A stretch of DNA of 64,000 nt, taken from the UHGV virus genome UHGV-0385297; one strand, written 5' to 3'. The stretch comes from a virus. Below are positions 27,233-58,833 of this stretch, one piece after another; the first letter of the stretch is position 1; every line of letters begins with the position of its first letter. The notes under the pieces were generated by a model. The model ran no database searches and was not told the DNA's origin. It saw nothing but the letters and a program-made list of their open reading frames with translations. The position numbers and the translations under genes were made by a program.

Positions 27233-27480
27233 CGCTCTTCCTTTCTTAAAAAATGACAAAATAAAAGTCACTCAAGATTTGAAGAGTGACTAAATACTTA
27301 GCATATTGCTATATTTAATTTTTGATTTATCAATATCTTTTGAAAAATGTAATTTATCAGTATTCAAAAAAGTATATATACCATTACCTTCATCGATCTT
27401 TTGAAAACCAAGAGATAATAATTTTTCAGCAGTATATGAATCGGATACTTTTAAAAATTTTTCTTTCACAAAATCACCTC

Positions 27481-29151
27481 TTATCCATTGGCTTTTGTGC
27501 CTTCATTTTTATTTCCGTCACGAGTAGCAGCCCCTTCGTCTGATATATCATCACCTTTAGTTGGTGCGCCACCTGTATTTTCTCCATTGTTGGCAGAATC
27601 TGTATATGTTGTTTTAAGTGGAACAAGCAAATCTCTAATACCAGAATTCATACTCATTCTTAAACCACATTCTATTTCATAAGGAGTTTGTCCAAGAGAA
27701 GTGAGATAGAGCATAGGATTATTACCTAATGTTACACTATCCTTTAAAGAATTAATATAATCCTCACGGTTGTACCAAGTTTGTCGATGGAAATTGAATT
27801 GATAGTTCTCATATCCGTTTTGACTAAGCCAGTAATTAAAATTGTGCTCTAATCTGGCAATCCAGGTAAAAGTAAGAGATGCATCATTAGCAATTGCTTG
27901 TTTAAGACCAATTGAATTGGTACTAGACCCACCAGCGACCACTAACTGAGATGCGCCACAGTTATTAAATACATTTTCAATGGATTTCGAAAGCATATCT
28001 GTATCAGAAGTGGTATTGGATTTTTCAAAATCAACAACATCAAGATCCATAGGAGATCTGACTGCTCCAACGTTCTCAGGAAGAATTTCATCAATCATAT
28101 TTTGAAATACTTCTGTCATTTCAAGTGATAATTTAAAATCATCAACCGCTGCTTTGTCTCCATCCATTAATGGAATTTTGCTTACTAATAATTTATAATT
28201 TTCCAATGCTGTTTTATCAGCCATAATATCAGCATAATCTTCACAGTCCATTAAAAGAAGAAAAATTCCAAGAAAAAAAGGAAGGCACAGATCAAATTCA
28301 TCATCAAGTCCTGCTAACAAACATATAGTTCGTTCAGTCGGAATATAAAAATAACGTTTATTTTGTTTATCAGATTGATATTCGTTCCAGGCATCAATGA
28401 ATAATTGATCCCAACATCCGGTAGTATCACCATCAACCCCTTCTACAAATTCCGAATTAGAACCTTGAGAAAAATAACTCATATCAAAAGCAATAACCCA
28501 GTTCCCTGCTACATCTTTTCCTTTGATTTTACAATACTGAGGGTCTAATGAATGAAAGAATAAACCATCATCGTTATCATAAACAAAACCATAATATGCT
28601 CCATTTAAAATTGCTAATGCGATCATTTGAGCAAATTCACTTTTAAAATTAATTTGCTGCATTTTTTGAATGACTGCATTATAATTTTTCATTGATTTTG
28701 AAGCATTATATGTTTTTTTAAGATCGATTTTCTCAGTCAGGTAATAATTATACGTAGGCATACAAGCGTAATATAGAATGATCTTTCTATATAAAGTATT
28801 AGATCTAAATAAATATTGAGACAGACCACGGATACGATCCTTATTAGTCTGTGGATTTTGCATATATTGTTTTACAAGGGATTTTGTATACTGAGTAAAA
28901 GAACGAGAAGTAGATTTAGAAACATTTTGTAAAAGAAGTTGTTTTGCCTCTTCAAAATTTAACATTCTTGGACGAGACGAAAACTGAACTGCCCGTTTTG
29001 GTTTTTCTTTTACCAATAACTCGGATGGTTTAGTTTCAATCTCATATGATTTTTTCTCTGGTAATGTAGTAATGTTTTTTTTAGGTCTTCCACGTTTTCT
29101 CTTAGGCGGAGAAACAGTAGAAGAGTGAGATTCTATTTTATTTTCGTCCAA
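27481..29151 (-). CDS. Portal protein
   Basis: 556 aa, located between the large terminase and the protease. Basic N-terminus and acidic disordered C-terminus. Confidence 0.55.
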   Translation of the reverse strand: MDENKIESHSSTVSPPKRKRGRPKKNITTLPEKKSYEIETKPSELLVKEKPKRAVQFSSRPRMLNFEEAKQLLLQNVSKSTSRSFTQYTKSLVKQYMQNPQTNKDRIRGLSQYLFRSNTLYRKIILYYACMPTYNYYLTEKIDLKKTYNASKSMKNYNAVIQKMQQINFKSEFAQMIALAILNGAYYGFVYDNDDGLFFHSLDPQYCKIKGKDVAGNWVIAFDMSYFSQGSNSEFVEGVDGDTTGCWDQLFIDAWNEYQSDKQNKRYFYIPTERTICLLAGLDDEFDLCLPFFLGIFLLLMDCEDYADIMADKTALENYKLLVSKIPLMDGDKAAVDDFKLSLEMTEVFQNMIDEILPENVGAVRSPMDLDVVDFEKSNTTSDTDMLSKSIENVFNNCGASQLVVAGGSSTNSIGLKQAIANDASLTFTWIARLEHNFNYWLSQNGYENYQFNFHRQTWYNREDYINSLKDSVTLGNNPMLYLTSLGQTPYEIECGLRMSMNSGIRDLLVPLKTTYTDSANNGENTGGAPTKGDDISDEGAATRDGNKNEGTKANG

Positions 29152-29165
29152 TCGGTTTCTCCTTT

Positions 29166-31268
29166 CTAAGAATATTTAGTTGATTTCTTTGGTGGTCTTA
29201 CATGGAAATATTTAGATATATCAGATGTGGTAGAAGTGCGTTGACGCTGAGTAATAACTTTTCTACGTTCACACATGAGCGCATGTGAGGCAAGGCATGC
29301 CGTATAGGCACGGTCGTCATGGAGCTTATTTGCTTTTTCAGGAGCGAGTTCAAATGAGTCTTTTCCTGAGTCTCTTTTTTTCCTCACAATATTAACAAGC
29401 TCCTCTTTCAATGCGTCAATATTCGCTAAAGCAAGTTTATCCATCCAATCCAGTTTTATAATCTTTGTTTTTACAGATTGGATTTTGTTTAATTCTTCGT
29501 CCAATTTCTTTTCATAATCAGATTCATTTAAATCTTCCTTTTTAAGACGTTTAACAATTTCTTCTTTTTCTTTATCAAATTTCTGTTGATCAACATCAAA
29601 TACGGTTAAATGATCCTTTCCATCATAAGAAGCGGTGAAACTTATTTTATTTTGATTCATAAGTTCGATCATTGCTTCGTACATTTCAGATTTATATTTA
29701 GCTGGATTTATAAGATGGACTTTATCAACGGCGTTTGGAAATTTTCTTATATATTCAGCTGAATATTCTTTGTCAATTAAACCTCTATGAATAATACCTG
29801 CAGCATCCGTCCAATCTGGCATAAGATAATCGGCTATATTAACACCACCACCACCAGATCCGGCATCAATATATATACCAATAATGTTGCCATAAGCATC
29901 GGCTCCACCATTGTAGTCAAGAATAATTTTTTTTAAATATTCAATCTGGTCAGGCGTCTGCATAGGTGACTTTATTTTTTTTCCAACATCAACAAGATTA
30001 ATACAATTTACTAATCGCATTCTAGTGTCAATACTTCCATCTACTTGTTCGAAATCATAAATTTCTCCAACTAGGATTACAGAATTATCTCTTGAACGAG
30101 CAGGGTCATAAGTAATTACAAATTTCTTATCACCAGTGTCATTGTAAAGAAGAGGTTTTCTAATTTCTTCATTTCTAGTGATTACTCCACGTTTAATGAC
30201 GGCATCATTACCAAGATCTGTACTAAACTGACAATAATATTCTCTTCTTGCTTTTTCTGGATTAGTTCTCATTTCTGTTTCTACGGTATTTCTGGATAGA
30301 AGAGGAGTAACCAATTCTCCTTTTAAAGTAGGTTTAAAAGCCTGTTCACAATCAATATGCAAAACGCAATAATCAGGATTTCCCATAATTTGTTGTTTTG
30401 CAAAATCTCTATACAATCTCCAGAATTGAGTGTCTGTAGAAGAAGCAGAACTTATATAGTATTTTTGATATGGCAAATCTCGTGGAATACATCGTTGTCT
30501 AATTGGATCAATTGAATTTCCATCAGAATCTTTACCTGTTTTTAAGCTCCTGTTTACTGCTGCAAATGCTCCGTAAACATTCATCATTTCATCTGACAAA
30601 AAGCCACTTTCGTCAAAAATTACGGTGCCGCGACTACCTCTTTTCGCATCTACGTTGCTATTTAATGTTTTTGTCATTGATCCGTTATAGCAAGAATAAG
30701 AAAAGCCGTTAGACGAGTGTGAAAAACCATCTCCTGCGGCATTTTTGATTTCTATTTCATTTTTAAAAATCGACCCTGTAGATCCATAAAATGTATCAAT
30801 ATTGTCATTTGCAAGTCGTTCCAATGTGGTAAAAGTTTGTTCGGCTTGTCCTCCTGTTCCGCTGGCAATATATGTCCATACATTACAGAAGCACATATCT
30901 TTTGCCATAATCTCTAAGTCTATAACTGTACTTTTACCATATCCACGGGTGCAAACAGCCAAAACATTAGGACAAATCCAGCTTCTTTGAACCAATAAAG
31001 CTTGTCCATCAAGTAGTTCTATATTGAAAAATAAATCTATCGCTTTTGTAGGATTACATTGCAGATATTTTTGGATATTTGCGATTTGAATATAAGAATC
31101 AATTTTTCGAGAAGAAATAGAATAACCATGAGGTTTTATATATATACCATATTGATTATAAAAATCTTTATCGTAATCCAATAATTCATTATTATAATAG
31201 TTTAAAATTATTTGTCTATTTTGATTCATTTTTATCCTCCTCTTGGGAAGATTCTTCTGAATCACCAA
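29166..31268 (-). CDS. terL: Terminase large subunit
   Basis: 700 aa. Walker A-like CTRGYGKST and Walker B VIFDESGF. A nuclease-like C-terminal half. Confidence 0.65.
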   Translation of the reverse strand: MVIQKNLPKRRIKMNQNRQIILNYYNNELLDYDKDFYNQYGIYIKPHGYSISSRKIDSYIQIANIQKYLQCNPTKAIDLFFNIELLDGQALLVQRSWICPNVLAVCTRGYGKSTVIDLEIMAKDMCFCNVWTYIASGTGGQAEQTFTTLERLANDNIDTFYGSTGSIFKNEIEIKNAAGDGFSHSSNGFSYSCYNGSMTKTLNSNVDAKRGSRGTVIFDESGFLSDEMMNVYGAFAAVNRSLKTGKDSDGNSIDPIRQRCIPRDLPYQKYYISSASSTDTQFWRLYRDFAKQQIMGNPDYCVLHIDCEQAFKPTLKGELVTPLLSRNTVETEMRTNPEKARREYYCQFSTDLGNDAVIKRGVITRNEEIRKPLLYNDTGDKKFVITYDPARSRDNSVILVGEIYDFEQVDGSIDTRMRLVNCINLVDVGKKIKSPMQTPDQIEYLKKIILDYNGGADAYGNIIGIYIDAGSGGGGVNIADYLMPDWTDAAGIIHRGLIDKEYSAEYIRKFPNAVDKVHLINPAKYKSEMYEAMIELMNQNKISFTASYDGKDHLTVFDVDQQKFDKEKEEIVKRLKKEDLNESDYEKKLDEELNKIQSVKTKIIKLDWMDKLALANIDALKEELVNIVRKKRDSGKDSFELAPEKANKLHDDRAYTACLASHALMCERRKVITQRQRTSTTSDISKYFHVRPPKKSTKYS

Positions 31269-32505
31269 ATACAGAATATAAGTCTCTTAAATCTTTTAAT
31301 GCATTTTCATCTAGTAAATCTTTTTCTTTTAAAGTATCTCTTAAATCAAGATTTTCACGTAACAATATACGGTTAATTTCTTGATAAGCATCTTTTTCTC
31401 TACGAAGACTTGTATTAGTAACACGCATTTCTGCAATCATATCTGACCATTCGGATTCATCAAGTGCTAATTGTTTCATAATAGAAGCATCGCTGATTTC
31501 TTGAACCTGTTGCATACCACGGCAAGTATCAATATCGAATCCATTCACTTCGGCATCTCGTAAGTTTAATGATTTGATCTTTTTAATTTTCCCCGTCCAA
31601 GTATTTTCACCTTTTTTGGCGTTTTTATTATGTTTTAAAGAGATACAACTATCCTGCGCAAGACTTGTAATAACAGAAGTTATTTTCCCTTTGCTTTCCT
31701 GCAAAGATTTAATTGTTGCCGAATTTTTTTCAATATTAGAAACATCACACATTAATTTAGCAACAGTATCATCAATTTTTGATTGCTGTAAAAATCCTCG
31801 AACAATAGAAATAGCGGAAGATGTACGCATCATATCTTCATTTGCATCCTCACTAGAATCAAGAAGACCTAACAATTGAGAATATAAAAATGGTTGATCT
31901 GAAATATCCTCTTTCTCAAACGGATCATAACTGAGTAATCTAATAACATCTTCTTTATTTTTTAAAAAGCTATCATATGTATCTAAGCCTGCATGAGTTT
32001 CTATTAGTTTTTCTTCGGTTATTTCTTCTTTTTTATTAATATCATCTTGCTTATATTTGATAAAACCATCACTATCAGCATATGTCAAAGTGTTATATTG
32101 TCCCATTGAAATCTGACGAATATAGGCATTCCAAACATTTGATTTAACCTTACCAGAAGCAAGATTTTCAGTTTCTTGAATACTGGAATCCCATACTTTT
32201 TCGAGAAAAGGTTTATTCAAATAGCGAAGCGCGAGTCGTACAGATTCTTTGTCTGGTTCATGTTCTATACCATCTTTTCCAACTTTAAAAACTATTTTTC
32301 TGGTACATTCTCTGCAAATAGGAGTTAAACCACTTTTATTCATTGGGTCTGTACTCATGTAGAATCCATCCTTGGATTTATGAGTATCACACAGATAACA
32401 CCATGCACCGTCTTTAAGAGATTTAACCTTTTCCTCTAATGTTTCAATTTTCTTCCTAGCTTGAGCAACTGTTATTTTAGTTGCTGGTTCTTTAGCTGTC
32501 GCCAA
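31216..32505 (-). CDS. Putative terminase small subunit / DNA-packaging protein with a zinc ribbon
   Basis: Overlaps the terL start. CYLCD...CRECTRK zinc ribbon plus coiled coil. Confidence 0.35.
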   Translation of the reverse strand: MATAKEPATKITVAQARKKIETLEEKVKSLKDGAWCYLCDTHKSKDGFYMSTDPMNKSGLTPICRECTRKIVFKVGKDGIEHEPDKESVRLALRYLNKPFLEKVWDSSIQETENLASGKVKSNVWNAYIRQISMGQYNTLTYADSDGFIKYKQDDINKKEEITEEKLIETHAGLDTYDSFLKNKEDVIRLLSYDPFEKEDISDQPFLYSQLLGLLDSSEDANEDMMRTSSAISIVRGFLQQSKIDDTVAKLMCDVSNIEKNSATIKSLQESKGKITSVITSLAQDSCISLKHNKNAKKGENTWTGKIKKIKSLNLRDAEVNGFDIDTCRGMQQVQEISDASIMKQLALDESEWSDMIAEMRVTNTSLRREKDAYQEINRILLRENLDLRDTLKEKDLLDENALKDLRDLYSVFGDSEESSQEEDKNESK

Positions 32506-33282: not shown

Positions 33283-34257
33283 TTAGAAAGTAAACTTGTC
33301 CTTGTTCTCCTTTACCTTTTTCTTATTAACAGTCAAGTAATGACGTACAGTAGTTTCGGTACTCTCATGATGTAAAAGTTCTGCTATATCCTGAATATCC
33401 ATACCAAGCTCTTTTAAAATATTTGAACCACTATGTCTAAGATCATGATTATGAAGTGTAGGTACACCGATCATTTTTCCTGCCTTTTTACACCAGTCGT
33501 TCAATGTGCTATTTTGAATACATTGAGTTTCTGTAACGTGAGGAGTAATAAATACCCAGCCAAAATCATTGATATTATTTTCTTCTCTATATTTCTTCAA
33601 TTTTCTTAGCAATTGCTCGACTTCCGGAGAGAAATATAAATCAACAACCTTTTGTTCTTTTTCAAGAACGTCATTGCACATACGCTCATCAAGATCAACT
33701 TGTTCCCATTTCAAATGAGACATTGCGTTTACACGAGCCATGGTAGATAACCCAAACATAATATACGTTTGCAGTTGTATGTCTCCATTTTCTTCAAGTT
33801 TTTCTCTTAACAAATTGACCTGATCAACACTTAAAAATGTTTGTTTGATAATAGCCATTCCTTGTTTTGGACGTTCTAGGAATTCTGTAGGAGATTCTTT
33901 AATCAATTTTTTCTTACGGAGAAATTTATAAAAAGCAGATACGGAAGCCATTACTCTTTTCTGTCTATTAACATTATTTCCTTGCTCTTTTCTCCAATAA
34001 AAATATTCCTCTATGTCTTCATCTGTTGCTTCCAGCACTGACAAATTAAATTGATTATCGTACATATAAATAAACCACTGTCTTAAATCTGAATTATACT
34101 GTTGAATACTATTATGAGATAAATCACGAATAGACATATCAATCTGATATTTTTGAAATAGTTTTAACGTTTCTGGATTGATATGTCCCAATTTTTCTTT
34201 ATCGTACAATAAAATTCTTTTACTTTTTTCTGCCATTTTCTCACTTCCTTTACCCAA
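33283..34257 (-). CDS. int: Tyrosine integrase / site-specific recombinase
   Basis: C-terminal catalytic motifs LHNHDLRHSGSN and TTVRHYL (R..HxxR..Y). N-terminal SAM-like domain. Confidence 0.85.
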   Translation of the reverse strand: MGKGSEKMAEKSKRILLYDKEKLGHINPETLKLFQKYQIDMSIRDLSHNSIQQYNSDLRQWFIYMYDNQFNLSVLEATDEDIEEYFYWRKEQGNNVNRQKRVMASVSAFYKFLRKKKLIKESPTEFLERPKQGMAIIKQTFLSVDQVNLLREKLEENGDIQLQTYIMFGLSTMARVNAMSHLKWEQVDLDERMCNDVLEKEQKVVDLYFSPEVEQLLRKLKKYREENNINDFGWVFITPHVTETQCIQNSTLNDWCKKAGKMIGVPTLHNHDLRHSGSNILKELGMDIQDIAELLHHESTETTVRHYLTVNKKKVKENKDKFTF

Positions 34258-37099: not shown

Positions 37100-37399
37100 T
37101 TAAGCACCCTTTACAGCATCCTTTAAAGCGGAGCCAGCCTTAAACTTAACAGTCTTAGTAGCTGCAATTTCAATCTCTTCACCAGTAGCAGGATTTCTAC
37201 CAATTCTTGCAGGTCTTTCTGCTACATCAAAGCTACCAAAGCCGGTGATTGCAACCTTCTCACCCTTAACCAGTGCATCCTTAACTGCTTCAAAAACTGC
37301 ATCTACAAAAATAGTAGTATCCTTTAAAGAAATCTTTGCATACTTCTCGTCCTGTACTGCAATTGTCTGTACGTTCTTTACTAATTCGGTCTTGTTCAT
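37100..37399 (-). CDS. hup: DNA-binding protein HU
   Basis: MNKTELV...GFGSFDVAERPARIGRNPATGEEIEI is the classic HU signature. Confidence 0.85.
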   Translation of the reverse strand: MNKTELVKNVQTIAVQDEKYAKISLKDTTIFVDAVFEAVKDALVKGEKVAITGFGSFDVAERPARIGRNPATGEEIEIAATKTVKFKAGSALKDAVKGA

Positions 37400-37907: not shown

Positions 37908-39098
37908 TTATACAAGTTCAATAGGGTAGTAACAAGCTACTCCTTTTTGATTACAGATACATACCATCTGAGATGGTTTTCCAGATAATCTCTTCTCAAT
38001 AGTAAATTGATCACCTGAACCAGCTAAAGTACCACCTCGAATCATTTTTACTCCATTTGCTTCATCAACTGCACAAGTGTGCATGTGACCCATAATTAAG
38101 GCATATGGGAAATACCCAAGCATAGAGCAGAGATTATATGTACCTGCTTTAGAGAATGGGTCGTAGTCTCCGTGAACAACAGTGTAAAACTTTCCACGAA
38201 TATCCAAGTCTACAATACCTACATCCAAATTTCTCTTTAAAATATGGATATTAGATATATGCTGTAAAGATAAACCAACACCCCATGTAATAATGTCATC
38301 AAGACGTTCATCGTGTAATGCATCTTCCTTACGCTCAATCCTGGTATGATTCCCAACTACACTTGAAATAAATACATTTGAAAAATGTTTAGACAATTCA
38401 TAGCAGAAAGATGAAATAAGTTCGGTTGCAATCTTAATCTGTTCGATAACATTTTCTCTATTTGTTACCTGTAAACTTTTATGGATGGACCCTGAAATCA
38501 TATCTCCACATAAAACCACATAACATTTCTCTGAATTATGTAACTCCCTAATAGCAATTACTTCGTTCAGTAATTTATTAAGCCTTTCAGCGGCAATATT
38601 GGAATTGTATTCTCCCCAAACAGAATTAAAGCACTGTCCAATATGAAAATCACTTAAGACAATTAACATATCATTATCAGATGTAACATCTACTTTTTCA
38701 TGAGTCTCAAAATTAGTACGCCCAAGCTGAGAAAGTGTACTTTCCAGCAGGTCTAATTTATTTTCTACACGGGCATCAATATAATTCTGTCTCTGCCAAG
38801 CAGTTCGTTCATCTCTAAACTGAATTTTCTTTCGTTCTAGTTCACGGATCTGTTTATCCAACTCATTATTACGGTTTTCCTTAGAGAATACTTCTGTATT
38901 GAAATCTTTAGCATTGTTGTAACGCTTACGATAAGCACTCTCAGAGCGATAAACGGTTTCATCTTCCCTAAACGCCTTATTAATCAATGCAGCAATTTCG
39001 TCCCATGTCATATCTAAAAGGCCGTTTTCTTTTGCCTGTCCTAATCTCCAAATATACTGAAGTTCGGATTCTCCGTTTAATAAATCTGTATTAAACAA
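37908..39098 (-). CDS. Calcineurin-like metallophosphoesterase
   Basis: Motifs VLCGDM, GNHTR, VVHGDYD and GHMHT. Confidence 0.65.
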   Translation of the reverse strand: MFNTDLLNGESELQYIWRLGQAKENGLLDMTWDEIAALINKAFREDETVYRSESAYRKRYNNAKDFNTEVFSKENRNNELDKQIRELERKKIQFRDERTAWQRQNYIDARVENKLDLLESTLSQLGRTNFETHEKVDVTSDNDMLIVLSDFHIGQCFNSVWGEYNSNIAAERLNKLLNEVIAIRELHNSEKCYVVLCGDMISGSIHKSLQVTNRENVIEQIKIATELISSFCYELSKHFSNVFISSVVGNHTRIERKEDALHDERLDDIITWGVGLSLQHISNIHILKRNLDVGIVDLDIRGKFYTVVHGDYDPFSKAGTYNLCSMLGYFPYALIMGHMHTCAVDEANGVKMIRGGTLAGSGDQFTIEKRLSGKPSQMVCICNQKGVACYYPIELV

Positions 39099-40197: not shown

Positions 40198-41367
40198 TTA
40201 AGAACATAATAAAAGAGAGTCTTTATTTAGACTCTCTGGATTTATTATATAAGTTTTATCGTTATTAAAAAAATAATTATCTAAAATAGAATTTATATTG
40301 TCTCGCTCCCAATATGGAATACGCATTAATGGAATATTATAATCTATACAATGAAGATTCTTTGCCTGATCACGTTCTTTATTTTCCGTAAAATTAATGC
40401 TTGCAATTTCGATGCCATCTCCATTAAAATCGATAGGCATGTAATGTTGTTCTCCATCAAATTCAATCGCCATATTTAGTTTTGGTAAGTAAAAATCAAA
40501 TCTCAATGGGTTATCCCAATAGGCAGTATAAATTTCATGAGTGTCATGTTCATAAACATAATTATGCTCTTTTAAATAAGCTAAGATTGTTTTTTCTCCA
40601 ATGGAACAAGTACATTCATTGCATTTCGTTTTACCTTTTAAAAATAATCCATAACTTGTAGTATAGGGCTGACCGCATACCTCACAAGAAATTAAAAGGT
40701 TATAATCATTATAAGATGTATAATTCGATAATAATTTATTTTTCCCATTTGCTTCTATGGTTGCACGTACTTCTTCTATTGAATATTTTTGTTTTTCAAC
40801 CATAGATTCTCTGCCACAATAATAACATCCTCGTCCAGATTTAAGATGTATCCAATTATTCCATTGAATACCTTTATCTATATGTTTATTACAAATATAA
40901 GGCATTTTTGTTTCATTATTTACATAAATTGATGGCATCATAATACAATCATTATCTTTGAAAGTTGAAATCATTTTATTTAATGTTTCAACTTTTTTCG
41001 GGATATTTCTAGCTTCCCATTTTTCTTTTACTTTACCATGGATGTTTGGAGACGCAGTACCATATCTAATCTTTTTAACTTCAACACCTTTTATAGGCGC
41101 ACAATCACGACATGCCACCTTGGAAACAATTGTCGTACCTCTATAATATTTTTTTACTTGCATAGAAAATATTTTTCCACAATAGTCACATTGTACATCA
41201 ATAAATTTATCACTTGAATGGGGAATATCTTCGAACCTTACTTCAAATTTATCTCCAAACTTTGTAAACCGATATCCTTTTTCTTCATAATAAGATTTTT
41301 GTGAGCCATTCCATTCTACTAATAATTTTTCTGTAATAACCATTTCGCAACGTTCCTTTCGTAACAA
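40198..41367 (-). CDS. Multi zinc-ribbon protein with a C-terminal DUF559/Vsr-like endonuclease domain
   Basis: Repeated CxxC...CxxC modules. C-terminal RFDFYLPK...IEFDGEQHY. Confidence 0.5.
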   Translation of the reverse strand: MLRKERCEMVITEKLLVEWNGSQKSYYEEKGYRFTKFGDKFEVRFEDIPHSSDKFIDVQCDYCGKIFSMQVKKYYRGTTIVSKVACRDCAPIKGVEVKKIRYGTASPNIHGKVKEKWEARNIPKKVETLNKMISTFKDNDCIMMPSIYVNNETKMPYICNKHIDKGIQWNNWIHLKSGRGCYYCGRESMVEKQKYSIEEVRATIEANGKNKLLSNYTSYNDYNLLISCEVCGQPYTTSYGLFLKGKTKCNECTCSIGEKTILAYLKEHNYVYEHDTHEIYTAYWDNPLRFDFYLPKLNMAIEFDGEQHYMPIDFNGDGIEIASINFTENKERDQAKNLHCIDYNIPLMRIPYWERDNINSILDNYFFNNDKTYIINPESLNKDSLLLCS

Positions 41368-45668: not shown

Positions 45669-46532
45669 CTAAGCTTTTCTATTTGTGGTATTACGTTTTT
45701 CGTTATATTTTTTATATCTAATTAAATCATTTTTTCTCTTACACTCACCACAATACATTTTCTTATTTCCTGTTTTTTCAATCAGTGCGCCACATTGTTT
45801 ACAGCGAGTGTACTTATTATTGTGTCCACGCTTAACTCCATAATATTCTTTCTGATAATTTCGAATATAATAGGAAAGAGAACGATTTATGTACTTAACA
45901 TAGAAATGATCTTCAGTAATAAAATCAAAATTATTTACAAGCTTTGTCTTATCTTCATACTCGTCAATCAATTTACAATTGTCAAAACACTTTCTAAGAA
46001 AACCCTCAATTATGATTTTGTACTCGTTCCAGGAAAGGGTCATTTTTTCTTTCTGAAATCTTTCTTTCGTGGTTAAAGCTTTATCCATAATGTCATCTAT
46101 GACAGAAGTAGCATTTTCTTCGGTCATATCTACACCAGAAGCCCATTTGTAATACAATTGTTTTGGCTTTTTGAGCAAATCCATATATTCCTTATTTAGA
46201 ATTACTTCTTTATCAAAATATTTCGTATAAATATTATTTATTTTTTGCCTTATAATTGAACACCAATTTTGATTTTTGGAAACAGATTTATAGTATTTAT
46301 ATTCAATCATGGACCATGCATCAAATACTTGTCCAACTGGTGTTCCCAGTAAATTCTTTGCTACCTTAAATCGAATAGCTTTCTTATATGTTCTTCTTTT
46401 ATTTCCACATGACCAGATGGCGGAGCAGAACGAAGAGAAAACTTCGTCCTTTTGCTCCTGAGTCTGTAGTTCTTTGTATTTTTCTATAATTTCATATAGA
46501 AATGTTTCGTTACAGTCGTAAATATGTATCAC
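45669..46532 (-). CDS. Hypothetical protein with a C-terminal CxxC zinc finger (possible transcription factor partner of the RNA polymerase)
   Basis: CKQCGAL...CGECKRK. Confidence 0.35.
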   Translation of the reverse strand: MIHIYDCNETFLYEIIEKYKELQTQEQKDEVFSSFCSAIWSCGNKRRTYKKAIRFKVAKNLLGTPVGQVFDAWSMIEYKYYKSVSKNQNWCSIIRQKINNIYTKYFDKEVILNKEYMDLLKKPKQLYYKWASGVDMTEENATSVIDDIMDKALTTKERFQKEKMTLSWNEYKIIIEGFLRKCFDNCKLIDEYEDKTKLVNNFDFITEDHFYVKYINRSLSYYIRNYQKEYYGVKRGHNNKYTRCKQCGALIEKTGNKKMYCGECKRKNDLIRYKKYNEKRNTTNRKA

Positions 46533-49140
46533 CTACTTCAAATTCATAATATTTTCCAAGATATTCATAAGTATTATATGATTTGTATGGAACTTCTCGA
46601 ATAGAAATATTTCGCTTTGGATTAGTATTATTTTTTAAATTCTCAATAATATATTCTCCATAAGCAGCCCAAGCTAAAGATTTACTGATTGAAAGAGAAG
46701 AGTATGAAGTTGCAATAACATAATTGGCAATAACATCTTCGTCAAGTTTAAGTTTTTCAGAAATATTATCTTTATATTTCTTTACAACTTCGTCCATACT
46801 AAAATCATTATTTTCATCTTTATGTAAATTTAGATGCTGCTTTATTTCATCTGCATACATATTGATGAATTTCTTACACTCTTTAATGACTCCTTTATCT
46901 TTTAGATTAAGGTCATTGTTGACGATTAAGCATCTTGTATCTATAAGATCATTAACACTGTTATCCCATTTAATATTCTTTTTCTCCCATGTCTCGATGT
47001 ATTCACATAATTCATTCATAGGAGAAGGAGACCTATAGGCATTCAATTTTTCTTTCTCATCTGGTTCAACTCCCTTATTTTTACTAAGAATATTCTGATA
47101 CGTTTTCATTTTTTGAGGATAATTATGAAGCAAGAAATACGGTAGCTGTTTTAAATGTTTTCTCAGACCACTATTCATATGCCACCTAAAACCGGTTTTA
47201 AGAAAATCAATTTCTTTGCCCTGGAAAATTCTTAGAAGAGAAGAGGAATCAGAGTATAACTTCTGAATATCTGGATTTGTTGTATACCGATTCTCAATGC
47301 TTGTTGCTACATTGGTTATTTCACCAATACGGTTATCTCTTGTCATTACTTCATACTCAATTAAATTTTCTTTCGTATATGGTTTTGACTTTGCTGTAAC
47401 CTTATCTTCGACATCAAGAATAATATGTTTGTCAATTTTTGAACCAATAACAATTGGTTCGTTGCACAAAAAGAAAATATCCCCGTCAAAATCTGCCCCT
47501 CCCTGCTGCGGGGCAGATATATCATACATATTAAACATCACGACATCTTGATCTTTAAAATATCCGAACCATTTATTTAAAATGTCATTTCGCACAATTT
47601 GAATCTTGTTTACTTCAGATGGGTCCACAAGAGGAGATCTAAAAGAAGCACAATATCCTGGTTCAAAATTTGCAGTATATAATTCTCTTTCTTTTAAGCA
47701 ACCGACTGGATTTTCTCCGACTGCATATTGAAGATAACCAATCATATCACCAACACCTGTATGATAAAAACCAGAACAATAAATTTTTCCTACTTTTGCC
47801 TCATCAATGGATTTTTTTAATTTTCTATAAATAAACTGCTTTACTGCAGGATCCTTCAACATTACATCATTGATCAATGCTGCTTCGAGATATTTACTTT
47901 CTGGCTCATATCCATCTGTATCATTTATACCCATGAATTTGTAGGTATAAAATTTATCTCCTTTAATAATCTTCTCGAATAGGTTAGTAGTGTATTTTGC
48001 CAATTTGATGATTTTTCCATCATTGTCAGGATTTAAAACGTCATATTCTTTTCTATTTTTATCTACAAAACTATTGATGTATTTCTCATTCCATAGATCA
48101 AGACATTGTAAATACTGAAAATTCATTCTGGTGTACTTGTTTAAGTGCTTTACATGATGGCTATACTTACTAATACCTAATTTAAACTGATATTTCTGTA
48201 ATGTCTTCATATATTCAATCCATGCATCATTTCCATACTTTGATTTAAAAATCTTATGACCTTTAAACATTGAGATGTTCCAGATACAATCAATATCATC
48301 GATTTTATGCTCATATCCATAGATATCAGTAATAGTAGTGTATCCCCATTCCTTTAGAATTTGTTTAAATGGAACATATACGGAATATCCTTTTATAAAT
48401 GGCAGACGAACCTGGTTTCCAATAACGTCATAGCCTAAATCCAACTGTGTACTAACAGTTTTCATAAATTCTCTTTCATGACAACCACATCCATCAAAAG
48501 GAGATAATCCTATATCTCTTAAACCTTCTTCAATTTCTCTAACTTTATATTTTTTGGACTCACCAGTTTCTTTATCTACGAAAGTTTTTTCTTTTTCTAT
48601 GACATATTTGATAAGCTGATCATTTAAAGTTTTTTCATATTCACCGATGATAACAATATTTGGAATATAATCTTTAATGAGAGTACAGGAGCTAAACGGG
48701 AGACATCTTTGCGCTTCATATTTAGAAATAACGCACTCATCAATTTCAATATCCATTTGAGTGATCATGTATAATTCATCGAAAATTTCGTCACATACAA
48801 AAGCAGTAATACCGTCTTTTCCCTGAGATGCAGATTTTCCAAAACGAGAATAATGAGTACCGTTATACGTAAATCCATTATTAAGAATATCTCGCAGTGC
48901 GGTTTCTTGTTTTGGATTCTTTTTTGCGACTATAAGCATAAGCTCTTTAATATGTGTTGAAAATCTACCTCTTAGCCTTTGAATCTGATCAAACAATAAG
49001 GAATCACCTTGTTTAATAAGATATTCATTATCTATTTCTTCATTTTTACTTAGACTCAAATCATATTCTGAATCAATGAGTTTTTTGATTGGTAACTTAA
49101 CCAAAGTGTATTGAATTGATTTTATAATAAACACCACCAT
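46510..49140 (-). CDS. Putative single-subunit two-barrel RNA polymerase (YonO-like), 876 aa
   Basis: Contains QQGGADFDGDIFF, which matches the universally conserved NADFDGD Mg-binding motif of the beta-prime/DPBB catalytic barrel. Confidence 0.5.
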   Translation of the reverse strand: MVVFIIKSIQYTLVKLPIKKLIDSEYDLSLSKNEEIDNEYLIKQGDSLLFDQIQRLRGRFSTHIKELMLIVAKKNPKQETALRDILNNGFTYNGTHYSRFGKSASQGKDGITAFVCDEIFDELYMITQMDIEIDECVISKYEAQRCLPFSSCTLIKDYIPNIVIIGEYEKTLNDQLIKYVIEKEKTFVDKETGESKKYKVREIEEGLRDIGLSPFDGCGCHEREFMKTVSTQLDLGYDVIGNQVRLPFIKGYSVYVPFKQILKEWGYTTITDIYGYEHKIDDIDCIWNISMFKGHKIFKSKYGNDAWIEYMKTLQKYQFKLGISKYSHHVKHLNKYTRMNFQYLQCLDLWNEKYINSFVDKNRKEYDVLNPDNDGKIIKLAKYTTNLFEKIIKGDKFYTYKFMGINDTDGYEPESKYLEAALINDVMLKDPAVKQFIYRKLKKSIDEAKVGKIYCSGFYHTGVGDMIGYLQYAVGENPVGCLKERELYTANFEPGYCASFRSPLVDPSEVNKIQIVRNDILNKWFGYFKDQDVVMFNMYDISAPQQGGADFDGDIFFLCNEPIVIGSKIDKHIILDVEDKVTAKSKPYTKENLIEYEVMTRDNRIGEITNVATSIENRYTTNPDIQKLYSDSSSLLRIFQGKEIDFLKTGFRWHMNSGLRKHLKQLPYFLLHNYPQKMKTYQNILSKNKGVEPDEKEKLNAYRSPSPMNELCEYIETWEKKNIKWDNSVNDLIDTRCLIVNNDLNLKDKGVIKECKKFINMYADEIKQHLNLHKDENNDFSMDEVVKKYKDNISEKLKLDEDVIANYVIATSYSSLSISKSLAWAAYGEYIIENLKNNTNPKRNISIREVPYKSYNTYEYLGKYYEFEVGDTYLRL

Positions 49141-49183: not shown

Positions 49184-49687
49184 CTACTCAATTTTTTCAT
49201 ATGCGTATCCGTCATCTGTAGTATAGTAAACATGTTTTATTCCTATATCTCTAATAGCAGCCATACAAGATGGACAAGGTCGTGCCAGTTTAAACACACC
49301 CCCATATCCTGCACGGTATATGTACAGTTTTACCTTTGAGAAATTAATATCCATATCACGGATCGCCGCCAGACAATTTATTTCTGCATGAAGTCGAGGC
49401 AATGTTTTATAACCTTTGTCGTATTCAATATGTCTATATCTGTTATATTTTTTCTGTAATGGATGAGTTTTGACGGTATTACAACCGATAGAAATAATAG
49501 ATCCTTGATAGACGGCTACACAGCCTACATGAGTTTTATGATAATCGGATAGGAGAGCAGTTTGATAAGCTTTCTGAAAATATTTCTGATCTGTCTTAGT
49601 TATCATGATTTTTTCTACTGTCTCTCTGTTTGGACCAAGCTTCACAAGATTTGTTGAAAGCAATATCTCGCATAAGGCATTCATCAA
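49184..49687 (-). CDS. dCMP deaminase (cytidine/deoxycytidylate deaminase family). The true start may be the internal ATG at 49606.
   Basis: HAEINCL and PCPSC zinc-binding motifs. Confidence 0.8.
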   Translation of the reverse strand: MMNALCEILLSTNLVKLGPNRETVEKIMITKTDQKYFQKAYQTALLSDYHKTHVGCVAVYQGSIISIGCNTVKTHPLQKKYNRYRHIEYDKGYKTLPRLHAEINCLAAIRDMDINFSKVKLYIYRAGYGGVFKLARPCPSCMAAIRDIGIKHVYYTTDDGYAYEKIE

Positions 49688-49860: not shown

Positions 49861-50643
49861 TTATATATTGTTATTCTCTAAAAGTTCTATTTGTTTTTCG
49901 ATTTCCTTATTGCAATCATAGGTTTGATCAATTACCTGGTTGCCATAACTGTCTTTCGTGAAATGTCTGTAATCTGCAAAAACTTTAGGTGTAGTAATAT
50001 ATTTTTCACGAGTTGAGGTGCTGTCTTTGATTCTCTTCATAGCTTTTGATTTTATAATTTCTAATGCATCTAAAATTTCTACTATCCTACCTACGTAACG
50101 TTCTGAAAGTCCTGTTTCATCTGAAATGGTTTTATAATGCCGGTAACAGCATAATGGGGATGTTGAAGATCTATTCATATTTAGACGGAGATAAGATAGA
50201 AGCAATAGAATATATGAAGAAGACATACGGATCGTGTCTACGGAAGTTCCTTCTAATTCTTCTTTAAAATTTAAAATTTTTTCAAGCTCATCGAAGTAAA
50301 TAATTCCAAAACGATCTGGTATATCAAATTTTTCAATATTAAGTTTTACCTGCAGGTATTTCACAGAATTAGTATGTTCTTTTAAACACTTTTCAAAGTC
50401 AGGAAACGTTTCAAAATAATTCTGGTCTGCAAGAAGTAGTAATGTATTATAATATTTCTGATTAATCTTTCCATCTCGGTAATTTGGCTTAAGTTTTGAC
50501 CAGTGGCATAATTCTGTAGTAGAAAATGCCACTGTGTCATCAAGAGAACGCCTTGCACATAAGTATGAAAAGATAATCACACGTTTATCCGATAGGGCAG
50601 TATCATATATAATTTCTTTTGGAATCTTCACATAATTAGGCAA
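49861..50643 (-). CDS. Putative DNA-binding / replisome organizer-like protein
   Basis: Position in the early operon next to iteron-like repeats. No clear motif. Confidence 0.3.
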   Translation of the reverse strand: MPNYVKIPKEIIYDTALSDKRVIIFSYLCARRSLDDTVAFSTTELCHWSKLKPNYRDGKINQKYYNTLLLLADQNYFETFPDFEKCLKEHTNSVKYLQVKLNIEKFDIPDRFGIIYFDELEKILNFKEELEGTSVDTIRMSSSYILLLLSYLRLNMNRSSTSPLCCYRHYKTISDETGLSERYVGRIVEILDALEIIKSKAMKRIKDSTSTREKYITTPKVFADYRHFTKDSYGNQVIDQTYDCNKEIEKQIELLENNNI

Positions 50644-53985: not shown

Positions 53986-54849
53986 ATGAGAAGATCGTTA
54001 AAGGATTTGCGCGGTGTCGAAAAAGATTCATATAAAGGTTTGCCTGAAGAGCTGAGAGAGTTCAATTATTATATTCCTGATTGTGGCAATGTAATTATGG
54101 CTGTGCCTGAGTGTTTATTAGAGAAAGCAGAAGAAAACGGTGAACTGGATATGTTTGAGTGTCCGTTTCCTGTAAAGTATGTGTTGGAAAAAGGATATAG
54201 AATATATAAAAATCACGTTATTTGTGAAGGAAAGTATGATAAGTTTGTTGGATTGCAGGTTGAAGAGGATTATTATGAATATAATAGACCAAGTAAGAGT
54301 AGTGGCGGATCAATATATACAAATGCGTTGATTAATGCTCTCAAAGGTAAGGTCTTTCCATCTTATATAGGGATGTCAGAAGGCACATTATTTGATATGA
54401 GTGATACAGGAGCTACTTTGACCATGTTTATGTATGATCCTGAAAAAGATGAAATTGCACAGTTTGATAGGTCTAAACCAGTTGAGATTCGATTTGCTGC
54501 TATAAAAGATGTCATTATGATGACTATTAAATTGGGCAATTTAGAATGGTGGGAAGCACCATACAGTGTTCATTTAAGTAGGAATTTGACACGGATGCCG
54601 GTCATTGAAGATGGTAAGGGTATTAATCTTACTTTGATGTTAGTTAATATTAGAACTGGAAGAGTAGAAAATGTAAAAGTAGTACAGCTATCTACAGAAT
54701 TTAGTGTTGCGCTATGCAAGGCTATTGATAAGCAGAGATCTACGAAGTTCTCGAATACAATGTATAATATAAATATTGATCGGTTATATGATATGTATAC
54801 TGCGGATCAGCTGGCAGAAATGGGTACTGCAAGGTGTAAGATTGGTTAA
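53986..54849 (+). CDS. Hypothetical protein (287 aa)
   Basis: RBS AGGAGG. Confidence 0.5.
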   Translation: MRRSLKDLRGVEKDSYKGLPEELREFNYYIPDCGNVIMAVPECLLEKAEENGELDMFECPFPVKYVLEKGYRIYKNHVICEGKYDKFVGLQVEEDYYEYNRPSKSSGGSIYTNALINALKGKVFPSYIGMSEGTLFDMSDTGATLTMFMYDPEKDEIAQFDRSKPVEIRFAAIKDVIMMTIKLGNLEWWEAPYSVHLSRNLTRMPVIEDGKGINLTLMLVNIRTGRVENVKVVQLSTEFSVALCKAIDKQRSTKFSNTMYNINIDRLYDMYTADQLAEMGTARCKIG

Positions 54850-55335
54850 TGGTAGAGTGGATTTGTAGTATAGATATAATGGTAGATACGACAAGTTAAT
54901 AATCGGATACGTTAGAACGATCCCTGGGTAATGGTATGTTATGTACTGTTACTTGGGGATTTTTTGTTGTGTAATTGTGTTGGGATGGATCGGAATGGAT
55001 GAAGGGTATGTTTTGATGTGTTATGAGTTGAAAACATGGAATCGTAAATTCCCTTTAATATAATGAAGAAACACGTTTTAAGATTAGAATTTTAATTTTT
55101 GGGATGTTGCATTTTTTGAAATTTTGGTGCGATTTTTATTGAGATTGCGGGATTTTTACGATAAGGGGGCCGATAACAGTTTTTGAGGTGGTGACGAGGG
55201 GATTTTGGGCGTAGTTGTGGGGAAATGGAGTGTTGGGATTTGGAATGTAGATGGGAGAGGAGCGTGATACACCTGGATGAGTTGGAAGTGGTGGGTGATT
55301 TGGAAGAGATGTTCAAATTTTAATTTGAAAGTTTG
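54850..55335 (+). other. C-depleted, G/T-rich, GGA-repeat-rich non-coding segment
   Basis: The plus strand has almost no C over about 480 nt. There are many GGA/GGGAT/TTGGGAT motifs and G-tracts. Confidence 0.5.
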
Positions 55336-55662
55336 ATTTTGAACTTAGTGTGTAGATGAAACAGCTACCGGCTCTGGTGAAAACACTTTAGCACTTTAAA
55401 GTTTTAACCAGCCCCCATAAACAATAATAGTAATAATTACTGTTATTTTACACGGTTTTTTCCTATTTTACCGTAGCCGAACATATGTTCTGTTATTTGA
55501 TCCGACTTCTGGCAATCGAACATATGTTTGCTTATTGACTGTGAGCTATGATAGTTTTTTAAACTTTTACATGTAGTATTGATAACTACATGTAATGATA
55601 TTTAATACTATAAGAGGTAGTTCGACAGTGAAAAAATAATATCGAAAAAATTAAAATTGTTA

Positions 55663-55691
55663 TTGACAATCACACTATCATGTGATATATT
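55663..55691 (+). promoter_or_regulatory. Promoter TTGACA-17-TATATT with an embedded TCACAC-N6-TGTGA operator
   Basis: Sequence read directly. Confidence 0.55.
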
Positions 55692-55763: not shown

Positions 55764-55792
55764 TTGACAATCACATGAACGTGTGATATAGT
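55764..55792 (+). promoter_or_regulatory. Promoter TTGACA-17-TATAGT with an embedded TCACA-N6-TGTGA operator
   Basis: Sequence read directly. It is tandem to the previous promoter. Confidence 0.55.
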
Positions 55793-55799
55793 CATTAAT

Positions 55800-56530
55800 G
55801 TAAGAACAAAGTAGTTCAGTTCTTACAGCCGCTAAAATGCCCATGTGGGGCGGTGGCAAGTTCCTTGTCAATTTAATAGGAATAAAGCCCATGAATTGAA
55901 AAATTCACAGGCTTTAAAAGTTGGTTTGATAAACCAAACCGTAGCAAGTTCAGTTTATCATTCTATCTTTCATTTGTCAAGTCTGGCAAGTGTTTTCCTA
56001 TTAATCGGCTACCAGTGACGGCACTGGTGGACTTTGCGCAACGGTCAAGATAACAATACTGGATGCCCGCAAGAGTGTCTAGCGTTTACGCAAGTAAGCG
56101 CATTGTGAAAATACCCGTTGTGGGTACATTGAAAAATAAACAACTTATACAGTGTTTTATAAAGCGTTTGGCATTTTCAACAACGGGTGAATTCCCCGTT
56201 AAAATGTCCGTGTAGCGTATAAAAGCGTTACACTAGCAAGCTGGACTTAGCACGACTGCGGTTGTGAACGTGTTCGCATTTGCGCACTTAGCTTGCTACT
56301 GGTGAAAATCCCACACTAGGATTCTGAAATCTTGCCTAGTAGTGACCCGTAAGAAGGTAGGAAGTCGGTTTAAGGCTGAGAAGCATTTTGGACAATAAAT
56401 AAAATGATTGTAAGACGTGTCGTTATACATAGGTCAAGGGGCGGACTAGCACTACCAGTCTGTCCTTTGCTCGTGTGCATAACACGGCAACTACAAAAAA
56501 TAATTTTAATTCCGCAATGCGGAGAAAGAG
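55800..56530 (+). ncRNA. Large, highly structured non-coding RNA candidate (ROOL/GOLLD-like?)
   Basis: About 700 nt without a credible ORF and GC-richer than its surroundings. Multiple long-range helices (ACCCGTTGT...ACAACGGGT; TAGCAAGCT...AGCTTGCTA; GTAAGAAC...GTTCTTAC). It sits downstream of two strong promoters. Confidence 0.4.
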
Positions 56531-56538
56531 GTATTTAT

Positions 56539-57339
56539 ATGAAGATTAACTTTTTAGCAAACTTTGAGAAAGTAACTATCAACGCTATTGTGCCAGCGGT
56601 ACAGTATGAGGCTAACCTGATGCTTCAGACTATGAATGATGAAGCAATCGCTAAACAGGATAAAATCATCTCTAATCAAAAAGGTGGTTACTCTGAGGAC
56701 GAAATTAAGGTAGCAAAGGACAAAAAGAGTAAACTGGAAGCCGCTAACGCTGAACTTGTAATTGCTAATGCTGAACTTGAGCCACGCTACAAGTCTACCC
56801 TGGAAGTAGTTACCAGTGCTAACAATGGTCATGTATCTAATGACCTTGTAGCGTTCCGTAACATTTTACGGCTTGTGGCATGCTCTGATAATAGCAAGTT
56901 TTTCCGCTATGCCATTATCACAGATGTCGATTTTTCAACGTTTTATGACCTGTTTGAAAAGTGCCATTCTATCGATGGTGACTTTGATGACAATGGTATG
57001 CGTGTATACCTTAATCAGGCTTGGAACACCCATAAAGACATCAAAGCTGAGATTGAAAAAATCCTTAAAAAAATGTTTTCACTCGTTGCTGACAGTGATT
57101 TAACCAAAAAAGTTACTATCAGATTTAACAAAACAGACCTTGGCATCTTACATGAGTGTTACGTCACAGGTCTGACCGTTTCTGCTAAAAAGGATAAAAA
57201 CGGTGAGGTAGTAGTGGGTGATTATAAATTTAGAACTGTAATCACTCGTAAGAAAGACAAGGATGGCAATGATAAGTTTGAAGGTGACAAGTTCAAAGAA
57301 CTCATTGCTAAAATTGCGTTTGGAAAACTGTATGCATAG
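56539..57339 (+). CDS. Hypothetical protein (266 aa)
   Basis: RBS GGAGAAAGAGG. The track ORF starts earlier, inside the structured RNA. Confidence 0.5.
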   Translation: MKINFLANFEKVTINAIVPAVQYEANLMLQTMNDEAIAKQDKIISNQKGGYSEDEIKVAKDKKSKLEAANAELVIANAELEPRYKSTLEVVTSANNGHVSNDLVAFRNILRLVACSDNSKFFRYAIITDVDFSTFYDLFEKCHSIDGDFDDNGMRVYLNQAWNTHKDIKAEIEKILKKMFSLVADSDLTKKVTIRFNKTDLGILHECYVTGLTVSAKKDKNGEVVVGDYKFRTVITRKKDKDGNDKFEGDKFKELIAKIAFGKLYA

Positions 57340-58710: not shown

Positions 58711-58833
58711 AGGCAGACCATGCTCTGCCAGCTCTGAGTTATGGAAACCGCTACGAGGTTCAGAGCAGACAACGGAATTTATTTCGGCTAATATCCATAG
58801 GTAACTTGTAAACCAGTATAAAAACCGTTATAC

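Follow-up and report, generated by a model that had tools for sequence, protein, structure and literature searches.

Composition and boundaries of the block

Over some 480 nt of the phage genome UHGV-0385297, cytosine nearly disappears from the plus strand, and we asked what kind of element would hold DNA in such a state. The preliminary description of the locus, made from the letters and a list of open reading frames, had noted a non-coding block packed with GGA, GGGAT and TTGGGAT units, and had named an RNA that captures CsrA-type proteins, a quadruplex-forming sequence and a degenerate tandem repeat as possibilities. Here we refer to the whole stretch of 64,000 nt that was analysed as the window.

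Base counts for positions 54850-55335 (486 nt, plus strand) gave 130 A, 32 C (6.6%), 150 G (30.9%) and 174 T, which corresponds to a GC skew of +0.648; C and G make up 18.2% and 15.9% of the 64-kb window. A sliding count over all 486-nt windows placed the peak of the skew, +0.656, in the window starting at 54828. The next separate peak reached +0.48, and only 0.03% of the 486-nt windows attained the value of the focal interval. The scarcity of cytosine on this strand was thus confirmed (32 C against 150 G), and the asymmetry goes well beyond that of any other part of the window. The share of T did not rise (35.8% against 34.9% window-wide). The deficit of C is made up by G, which means that the G:C pairs share one orientation, with G nearly always on the plus strand. 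Intergenic DNA 100 nt from the block has a skew of about 0.

The interval that was first delimited is C-poor, but it proved to be composite. Its left approx. 115 nt, from 54850 to about 54966-54971, are the 3' UTR and the terminator of the ORF at 53986-54849, and the terminator hairpin at 54919-54961 is a stable one (-37.2 kcal/mol, z = -4.3). On the other side the unit extends rightwards past 55335, to approx. 55424. The features of the element and its flanks are as follows.

53986-54849, plus strand: upstream ORF of 287 aa, phrog_12389, outside the element (ORF list, PHROG)
54919-54971, plus strand: intrinsic terminator belonging to the upstream ORF; the hairpin has 20 pairs, some of them G-U, and leads into a T run (terminator scan, fold)
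54953-55346, plus strand: the C-poor, G/T-rich block proper, 394 nt, C 5.8%, G 31.5%, T 37.1%, non-coding
55113-55197, plus strand: core of approx. 85 nt, near-invariant in 7 close relatives, holding GCGATTTTT, GGGATTTTT and the CGATA pair
55159-55177, plus strand: ACGATAAGGGGGCCGATAA, two CGATA units 12 nt apart, holding several of the rare cytosines
55349-55368, plus strand: landmark box 1, GTGTGTAGATGAAACAGCTA (alignment, nhmmer)
55365-55615, plus strand: equivalent, by position only, of the 250-bp opening fragment of SPβ
55401-55417, plus strand: landmark box 2, AGTTTTAACCAGCCCCC, with a C-run (alignment, nhmmer)
55452-55476, plus strand: hairpin CACGGT..ACCGT
55479-55491 and 55518-55530, plus strand: two LexA/Cheo-type boxes
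55567-55595, plus strand: perfect 11-bp inverted repeat

To the right of the inverted repeat there are two near-consensus promoters with operator-like inverted repeats and then a highly structured leader of approx. 745 nt, for which no similarity was found in the non-coding gap between yonN and yonK of SPβ. Within the block an AT-rich stretch occupies 55060-55130.

The window's block is borne by six IMG/VR loci. Three of these (L022, L025 and L026) have the start of a minus-strand gene as left neighbour and are homologous to the window from approx. 54953 only, and in L025 the right flank differs too. From the different left neighbours and the onset of homology at approx. 54953 we concluded that the block is a separate module, 54953-55346. 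In the 98%-related phage L002/L076 a segment of approx. 125 nt is heavily diverged, yet the block there contains only 4.8% C. The core at 55113-55197 is kept even in L002 and L023, whose flanks have diverged.

The only sizeable ORF in the interval (55092-55316, minus strand, 74 aa, TTG start) is of low complexity, and indels of 1 nt and 9 nt lie inside it among near-identical relatives. We concluded from these indels that the stretch is non-coding, as had been claimed at the outset.

Relatives of the block and the SPβ opening region

Judged by its genes, the window derives from an SPβ-like phage. The ORF at 46510-49140 matched the Pfam family RdRP (PF05183) and is homologous to YonO, the RNA polymerase of SPβ, which consists of a single subunit (PMC5467207). 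Using tblastn with SPβ proteins we found homologues of YonO, YonJ, YonN, YonF (terminase), YonE (portal) and YonD, all on the minus strand and mostly in the order known from SPβ, with the homologues of yonJ and yonN swapped. The YonF match at 30540-31121 is weak (23.6% identity, E = 1.9e-6) and lies adjacent to the YonE portal homologue; searches of PHROG, Pfam and PDB with this putative terminase returned nothing. Genes point leftward from approx. 53.8 kb and rightward from 53986, which sets the strand switch at approx. 53.9 kb. The block adjoins this switch, 5.7 kb upstream of the RNA polymerase gene and approx. 24 kb from the terminase gene, and its position is thus the border between the late arm, which includes the polymerase, and the early regulatory arm.

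We surveyed 65 loci around YonO homologues with 43-100% identity. A strong C-poor non-coding block was present in 44 of them (206-735 nt, 2-5% C), so that the proposed search for the block in related phages gave a positive answer, and in all 44 the G-rich strand is opposite to the coding strand of the polymerase. The blocks form 26 sequence clusters, and several families cannot be aligned with one another by BLAST although their composition is alike.

Common to all families is a two-box landmark at the right end of the block, TTGGTGTGTAGATGAA-N3-GCTAT followed by approx. 35 variable nt and AGTTTTTGCYACCCCC. The window has it at 55337-55424, as GTGTGTAGATGAA..GCTA, approx. 35 nt and AGTTTTAACCAGCCCCC. 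The C-run of box 2 lies approx. 55 nt from box 1, a spacing that is nearly fixed in all families, and DNA folding of 12 families revealed no conserved hairpin between the boxes (z near 0). A profile HMM of the landmark was built from the other families, SPβ and Goe12 only, with the window's own family left out. With nhmmer this profile had a single match in the window, at 55337-55424 on the plus strand (E = 1e-11, 40.5 bits). Among the 44 block loci, 42 had exactly one match, which lay within 60 nt of the block end in 36. In the other six the landmark was 1.6-2.9 kb away, with an intervening ORF in those examined, and the 300 nt beside the distant landmark were still C-poor (4.4-7.0% C) in the four of these six loci that were checked.

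Short motifs are shared as well. In 13 diverged blocks, taken from the families and SPβ, ACGATA occurred 17 times against 0.5 expected from dinucleotides and was present in 11 of the 13, often as a pair 12 nt apart. GATTTT occurred 73 times against 18.9 expected and was present in all 13. The CGATA pair is the most conserved motif within the blocks of otherwise unalignable families and SPβ.

Other collections yielded little. The block DNA had no match among INPHARED phages, and relatives of the flanking proteins came from near-identical phages only, or from unrelated phages that share one domain and have no block. The core of the block had 0 matches in a host and prophage search of 185,579 species genomes. 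A degenerate form of the landmark had 63 matches in the same genomes, all by chance, none of them a true profile match or adjacent to a block. Relatives of the window's terminase are encoded on 245 IMG/VR stretches. For a co-variation of the terminase-adjacent ORF with the block families, the 80 terminase loci retrieved had too few contigs in common with the polymerase loci.

SPβ itself carries a C-poor block in the intergenic region between yonP and yonR, at approx. 64194-64531 of NC_001884, with a skew of +0.49 to +0.66 at 10200-10600 of locus L095. It contains 6.8% C and 27.8% G with repeated TACGAT/ATCGTA motifs, and ends as GGGTGTGGAAATGGAAGT|GCTATGG...AAATATACCCCC. The landmark of SPβ is clearly homologous to that of gut family D and, via the profile, to that of the window; the same profile matches SPβ at 10506-10603 of L095. 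The homology at the boundary, …GTGTG.A.A.GAA..GCTATGG … ATACCCCC, is found in the window at 55337-55424.

The place where SPβ DNA is opened and its packaging starts has been assigned to the region between yonR and yonP by the restriction mapping of Fink & Zahler in 1982, and PhageTerm read mapping gave the same yonR-yonP site for phi3T and Goe11-14 (bioRxiv 10.1101/2021.11.22.469490). Packaging is headful and proceeds counter-clockwise, towards yonP/yonO (bioRxiv 10.1101/2021.11.22.469490; PMC8270828). Read coverage is high over a fragment of approx. 250 bp that reaches from GCTATGG to …GGGAATCGAAG, and position 251 is given as the start of packaging (bioRxiv 10.1101/2021.11.22.469490, supplement). 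The sharp left edge of this pac fragment, GCTATGG, has its counterpart in the window at the junction 55364|55365, before GCTA. Skewed blocks are not mentioned in these papers on the SPβ pac region (bioRxiv 10.1101/2021.11.22.469490 with its supplement; PMC8270828). Base composition around the mapped fragment of Goe12 was as follows.

L098 3400-3728, left of the fragment: C 6.7%, G 27.7%
L098 3729-3980, the 250-bp fragment: C 15.1%, G 15.1%
L098 3981-4200, right of the fragment: C 29.5%, G 3.6%

In Goe12, mirror-image skewed blocks thus start exactly at both mapped edges of the fragment. Mirror arms are also present in gut family D (L048, L071), and the window's family A, like families B and C, has the left arm only. 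The Goe12 record begins at attP and not at the opening point, and is without a pac annotation.

A possible recognition arm for packaging and its alternatives

In the reading that we favour, the pac region of an SPβ-like temperate phage has a recognition arm that is rich in G/T and excludes cytosine, and the block is this arm; we give this reading a probability of roughly 55%. As far as position and landmark homology can place it, the element belongs to the SPβ-type pac region. The DNA ends of the window's phage would then map at the landmark, and the block itself would be the binding target of the terminase. The arm would be bound by the small subunit, or by another protein with the same recognition role, via many G/T-rich sites of the same orientation (GGATTTT-like) together with the ACGATA-N6-(A/C)CGATA pair; candidates for the binder are YonG, or the window's ORF 31216-32505, and small ORFs nearby. 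Binding would bring the nuclease to the two-box landmark next to the arm (55349-55417), with a cut at approx. 55364|55365 as placed by homology, and headful packaging would proceed leftward through the block, towards the RNA polymerase and structural genes. We propose that sites facing the same way, as on DNA wrapped round a rotationally symmetric oligomer, would hold G on one strand and so give the block its C-less look. That the block is bounded by the terminators or promoters of its neighbours was counted in favour of this reading.

Several results count against the recognition arm. For the authors of the SPβ study, the pac pattern belongs to the 250-bp fragment, which extends rightward from GCTATGG, and not to the block (bioRxiv 10.1101/2021.11.22.469490). 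The right arm is absent from the window's family, and distant cultured YonO phages of Enterocloster and Thomasclavelia (polymerase identity 23-30%) had no block near the ends of their records. A small terminase subunit was not found in the window, the ORF upstream of the terminase (31216-32505) being without a match in PHROG, Pfam or PDB. Within the single block the top k-mer counts were no higher than in shuffles, and the helical phasing of T-tracts and GATTT, with z of approx. 2-2.5 at 10.25-10.5 bp, stayed below the threshold of approx. 3.7.

Among the alternatives, those that rest on the GGA units and G-tracts fared worst. A plus-strand transcript, rich in GGA, could titrate CsrA or some other protein that binds RNA, and the 20 GGA triplets in 486 nt are indeed four times the window average; in length and in number of GGA triplets the block resembles sponge RNAs of the CsrB/RsmY type. 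This number is, however, what dinucleotide composition predicts (17.3 expected, P = 0.21), A(N)GGA was not in excess (4 against 4.7 expected), and AGGA was depleted (1 against 3.2). The plus-strand RNA of the block folds no better than shuffles (z = +0.67), promoter prediction gave no sigma70-like site for the plus strand from 54547 to 55622, the block is directly preceded by a terminator, and Rfam gave no match in the block at the gathering threshold or at E up to 10. The block thus differs from the CsrB/RsmY type in that it has no GGA-presenting stem-loops, transcription signals, A(N)GGA excess or family match. In addition, the homologous SPβ block is A-rich instead of T-rich and shows GGA in other contexts, and we consider the probability of an RNA sponge almost negligible. 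The idea that the G-rich strand forms quadruplexes as a structural signal scarcely fared better. The G4Hunter maximum of the window (1.72) lies at 55198, but a G3+ motif with loops of at most 7 nt occurs 0 times in the interval, and allowing loops up to 12 nt gave a single one, at 55198-55237 (loops of 5, 9 and 12 nt). This is the string GGGGATTTTGGGCGTAGTTGTGGGGAAATGGAGTGTTGGG cited in the preliminary description, and the first two of its G-runs are gone in L002/L076; G3 runs are few in T-rich families, for example in L051.

The repeat-like appearance of the block was upheld in part. GGGAT was found 5 times in the interval against 1.8 expected (P = 0.02, uncorrected), and within the single sequence the packing with GGA units matches the dinucleotide expectation, as given above. 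At the family level the excess of GATTTT across diverged blocks makes the GGGAT(TTT) units real. As to a degenerate tandem repeat, TRF reported no tandem array in the block, a repeat finder listed repeat families of 2 copies each only, and no regular period was found; the term holds loosely, for an irregular array of GATTTT in one orientation that is seen family-wide. GATTT showed a further periodicity peak at 12 bp (z = 5.2).

Two further alternatives accept that the landmark is a DNA end. RecA prefers GT-rich DNA, and a resected G/T-rich 3' tail could aid RecA loading and circularisation via terminal redundancy, or protect the end. The polarity is right, since after a cut and 5'-3' resection the G/T-rich strand is the one that ends 3' at the terminus; this strand runs 5'-3' towards the landmark, and the mirror arm of Goe12, SPβ and family D approaches from the opposite side with the same polarity. 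On the other hand, a headful series has a pac end on its first molecule only, most gut families have a single arm, and AGCGG, the Chi sequence of B. subtilis, is absent from the SPβ block as read from its sequence. We regard a role at the DNA end as unlikely. A little less probable still, in our judgement, is that the block is a functionless spacer, in which a strand that is repeatedly single-stranded beside the packaging cut has lost cytosine by deamination. Such a by-product would suit a block that contains no ORF, and in Goe12 the skew changes sign exactly at both mapped edges, as if exposure depended on distance and direction from the end. Deamination converts C to T, yet T is flat and G is doubled relative to the window, the excess of specific motifs among families is 4- to 30-fold, the 85-nt core is kept where the flanks diverge, and the skew is gone in the intergenic DNA nearby.

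The remaining two alternatives look to replication and to transcription. The block lies approx. 1 kb from the switch in gene orientation and in cumulative GC skew, it contains the AT-rich stretch described above, and a gene at 49861-50643 has weak matches to DnaD/replication initiators. An origin could therefore be imagined, with a persistent G-rich R-loop as primer or with box 1 as a DnaA-box-like site by an AT-rich unwinding stretch; box 1 of family B, TGTGGATGA, fits the complement of the DnaA box, TGTGGATAA, at 8 of 9 positions by eye. The single DnaA-like box is nevertheless poor in the window (7 of 9) and in SPβ, no promoter was predicted for a rightward G-rich transcript, and what the experimental SPβ data place at the landmark are DNA ends and not replication starts, so that an origin appears improbable. 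A minus-strand transcript might instead serve as a Rho-loading (rut) site that keeps leftward transcription of the early region from running on into the late arm. Its RNA would contain 31% C and 6% G (C/G approx. 5) and would be nearly unstructured (-23.9 kcal/mol over 384 nt). No leftward promoter was predicted near enough, however; transcripts from the candidates at 55952-55989 would meet a hairpin terminator at 55916-55883. The likely yonP promoter of SPβ (TAGACA-17-TATAAT, by eye) lies between yonP and the block, which would put the block outside that transcript, and in L048 a minus-strand terminator stands between the block and the leftward gene. A rut site would also leave the landmark and the mirror arm unexplained, and we consider it highly improbable.

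Three other candidates were tried and rejected. The start site of YonO in SPβ is upstream of yonK (PMC5467207) and the likely yonP promoter has the position just given, which leaves no place for the block as a YonO promoter or leader. The MrpR operator SPBRE takes up one 15-bp site only, at the promoter of yonP (PMC10516654), and cannot explain a skewed tract of 300-700 bp. A cluster of Chi sites was dropped because the SPβ block lacks AGCGG.

Returning to the recognition arm of the pac region, a wider proposal may tentatively be attached to it, which we hold to be possible but less probable than the assignment of the block itself. Long C-excluding arms (206-735 bp) with sites in the same orientation may load a recognition protein and set the cut exactly at the edge of the arm, a pac architecture that would be new relative to the model phages. 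In SPβ, Goe12 and family D two mirror arms would then define two cuts approx. 250 bp apart, and the signal conserved from Bacillus phages to those of human-gut Clostridia would be the strand asymmetry and not a fixed sequence.

Comparison with other pac systems

The pac region of SPβ, phi3T and Goe11-14 has the same position as the element studied here, at the late/early border upstream on the yonP-yonO side. The two-box landmark is homologous (E = 1e-11), GCTATGG is directly adjoined by a block that is C-poor and G-rich on the same strand, and ACGATA-type motifs are present. The blocks of SPβ and the window cannot be aligned beyond the landmark and short motifs. That of SPβ is A-rich (38% A) and that of the window T-rich (37% T), and in SPβ and Goe12 a mirror C-rich arm follows beyond the 250-bp fragment, which the window lacks. 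The element is therefore not a new class but an undescribed, sharply defined feature in a model family of phages, one that is abundant in the human gut.

The start site is recognised by pac-type terminases in a way that is understood in few model phages only. In SPP1, pac consists of pacL, pacC and pacR, and the small terminase G1P binds while G2P cuts. The architecture is analogous to the one proposed here, with a cut region between recognition arms that carry repeated boxes and with headful packaging in one direction, and the pac of SPβ is without sequence similarity to that of SPP1 (PMC8270828). The arms of SPP1 are approx. 100 bp long, lie beside the terminase genes and show no strand skew, whereas the arm suggested here measures 206-735 bp, is separated from the terminase gene by approx. 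24 kb and has cytosine excluded from one strand.

The pac of P1 is made up of clustered hexamers, TGATCA/G, on both sides of the cut. There is a likeness in that the mapped SPβ fragment has copies of a short hexamer with the rare bases (ACGATA / ATCGTA) to its left and to its right. The difference is that the hexamers here sit in a long skewed tract, which is absent from P1, and are not known to depend on methylation. Neither P1 pac nor SPP1 pac has sequence in common with the block element.

The one-strand cytosine desert and the two-box landmark together form a signature that can be computed and that is tied to the mapped opening point of SPβ. If the recognition-arm reading is true, the start and direction of packaging, and hence the host or phage DNA that is transduced, would be predictable in uncultured SPβ-like phages, and the block would be a protein-DNA recognition region that conserves the base composition of one strand and not its sequence. 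If the block is dispensable, the mirror skew would instead record, with unusual sharpness at the mapped edges, a strand-specific mutation process that depends on the DNA end.

As an anecdotal observation, the two IMG/VR contigs L057 and L082 terminate 330-335 nt to the right of GCTA.

Base composition around the pac fragment and the landmark

The mapped 250-bp pac fragment of SPβ-type phages, the genome-opening piece between yonP and yonR, is flanked by G-rich, C-poor sequence on its left and by C-rich, G-poor sequence on its right (Goe12, L098 3400-4200; SPβ, L095 10195-10999 and ~12246; the family D loci L048 and L071). These mirror-image blocks begin exactly at the two sharp edges of the fragment. 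In SPβ, yonR-yonS appear to have been inserted into the right arm. The right arm is absent from the window's family.

The two-box landmark was found 1.6-2.9 kb from the end of the C-poor block in L033, L035, L064, L068, L084, L037 and L043. A minus-strand ORF lay between block and landmark in all four loci examined for ORFs (L033, L037, L064, L084), with a length of 389 aa in L033 and L064, and the 300 nt adjoining the landmark were still C-poor in 5 of 5 loci checked (L033, L037, L043, L064, L084). Gene insertion thus seems to be tolerated in this region, or drawn to it.

Periodicity was analysed in 13 C-poor blocks: that of the window (54962-55346), 11 gut-phage representatives and SPβ (L095 10195-10532). 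The start positions of GATTT showed a periodicity of 12.0 nt (z=5.2; shuffle threshold ~3.9), which is the spacing of the CGATA pair and not the DNA helical repeat. Two independent IMG/VR metagenomic contigs with different block families, L057 and L082, ended 335 and 330 nt right of the GCTA of the landmark, respectively; this could be a physical genome end or a coincidence.

Putative control sites and the leader right of the landmark

Features right of the landmark in the window
55479-55491 and 55518-55530: CGAACATATGTTC and CGAACATATGTTT, a pair of LexA (Cheo-box)-type sites directly right of the pac landmark
55567-55595: perfect 11-bp inverted repeat, TTACATGTAGT-N7-ACTACATGTAA, kept in close relatives
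55663-55691 and 55764-55792 (+): a pair of sigma70-type promoters close to the consensus (11/12, with TG)
55795-56540 (+): untranslated leader of ~745 nt, bounded by these two promoters, which are strong, and by the point where the next ORF probably starts

In families A and B, LexA-like boxes were present at the corresponding relative position as well (L036, L038, L039, L045, L091). Together with the two sites in the window this suggests, on sequence grounds, that a rightward promoter is under SOS control. The inverted repeat at 55567-55595 could act as an operator or form a hairpin.

Both sigma70-type promoters carry the inverted repeat ATCACA…TGTGAT between -35 and -10. The same promoters were found in the relatives L021, L022 and L026, but with the inverted repeat CATGTT…AACATG, which, judged by sequence, looks like a swap of repressor/operator specificity.

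The true start of the next ORF is probably the ATG at 56540, preceded by the RBS GAAAGAGG. The leader folded far better than its shuffles (z=-7.2). No Rfam family was matched by the leader, and no similarity to the non-coding gap between yonN and yonK of SPβ was detected. The leader is possibly a structured RNA of a kind not yet described.

Neighbouring genes

The ORF at 53986-54849 (+), left of the block, is a mosaic by sequence comparison: its first 99 aa recur, at 61-70% identity, in many other gut phages and in a Clostridium scindens phage, and the matches of the C-terminal portion are to phrog_12389 and to another, different fecal phage. The late region (25544-49140, minus strand) is syntenic with SPβ, and other genes are interspersed in it.

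Genes of the late region
25544-27271 (-): yonD
27481-29151 (-): yonE/portal
29166-31268 (-): yonF/terminase
33283-34257: tyrosine-recombinase-like ORF, interspersed
~37109-37399 (-): yonN
37908-39098 (-): yonJ
40198-41367: HNH endonuclease, interspersed
46510-49140 (-): yonO
49184-49687: dCMP deaminase, among the interspersed genes
Five tRNA genes, interspersed with the SPβ-like late genes

Between ORFs of the early arm, an Rfam match to the HDV-F-prausnitzii ribozyme (RF02682) was detected at 58731-58800 (+), scoring 44.1 bits against a gathering score of 44.
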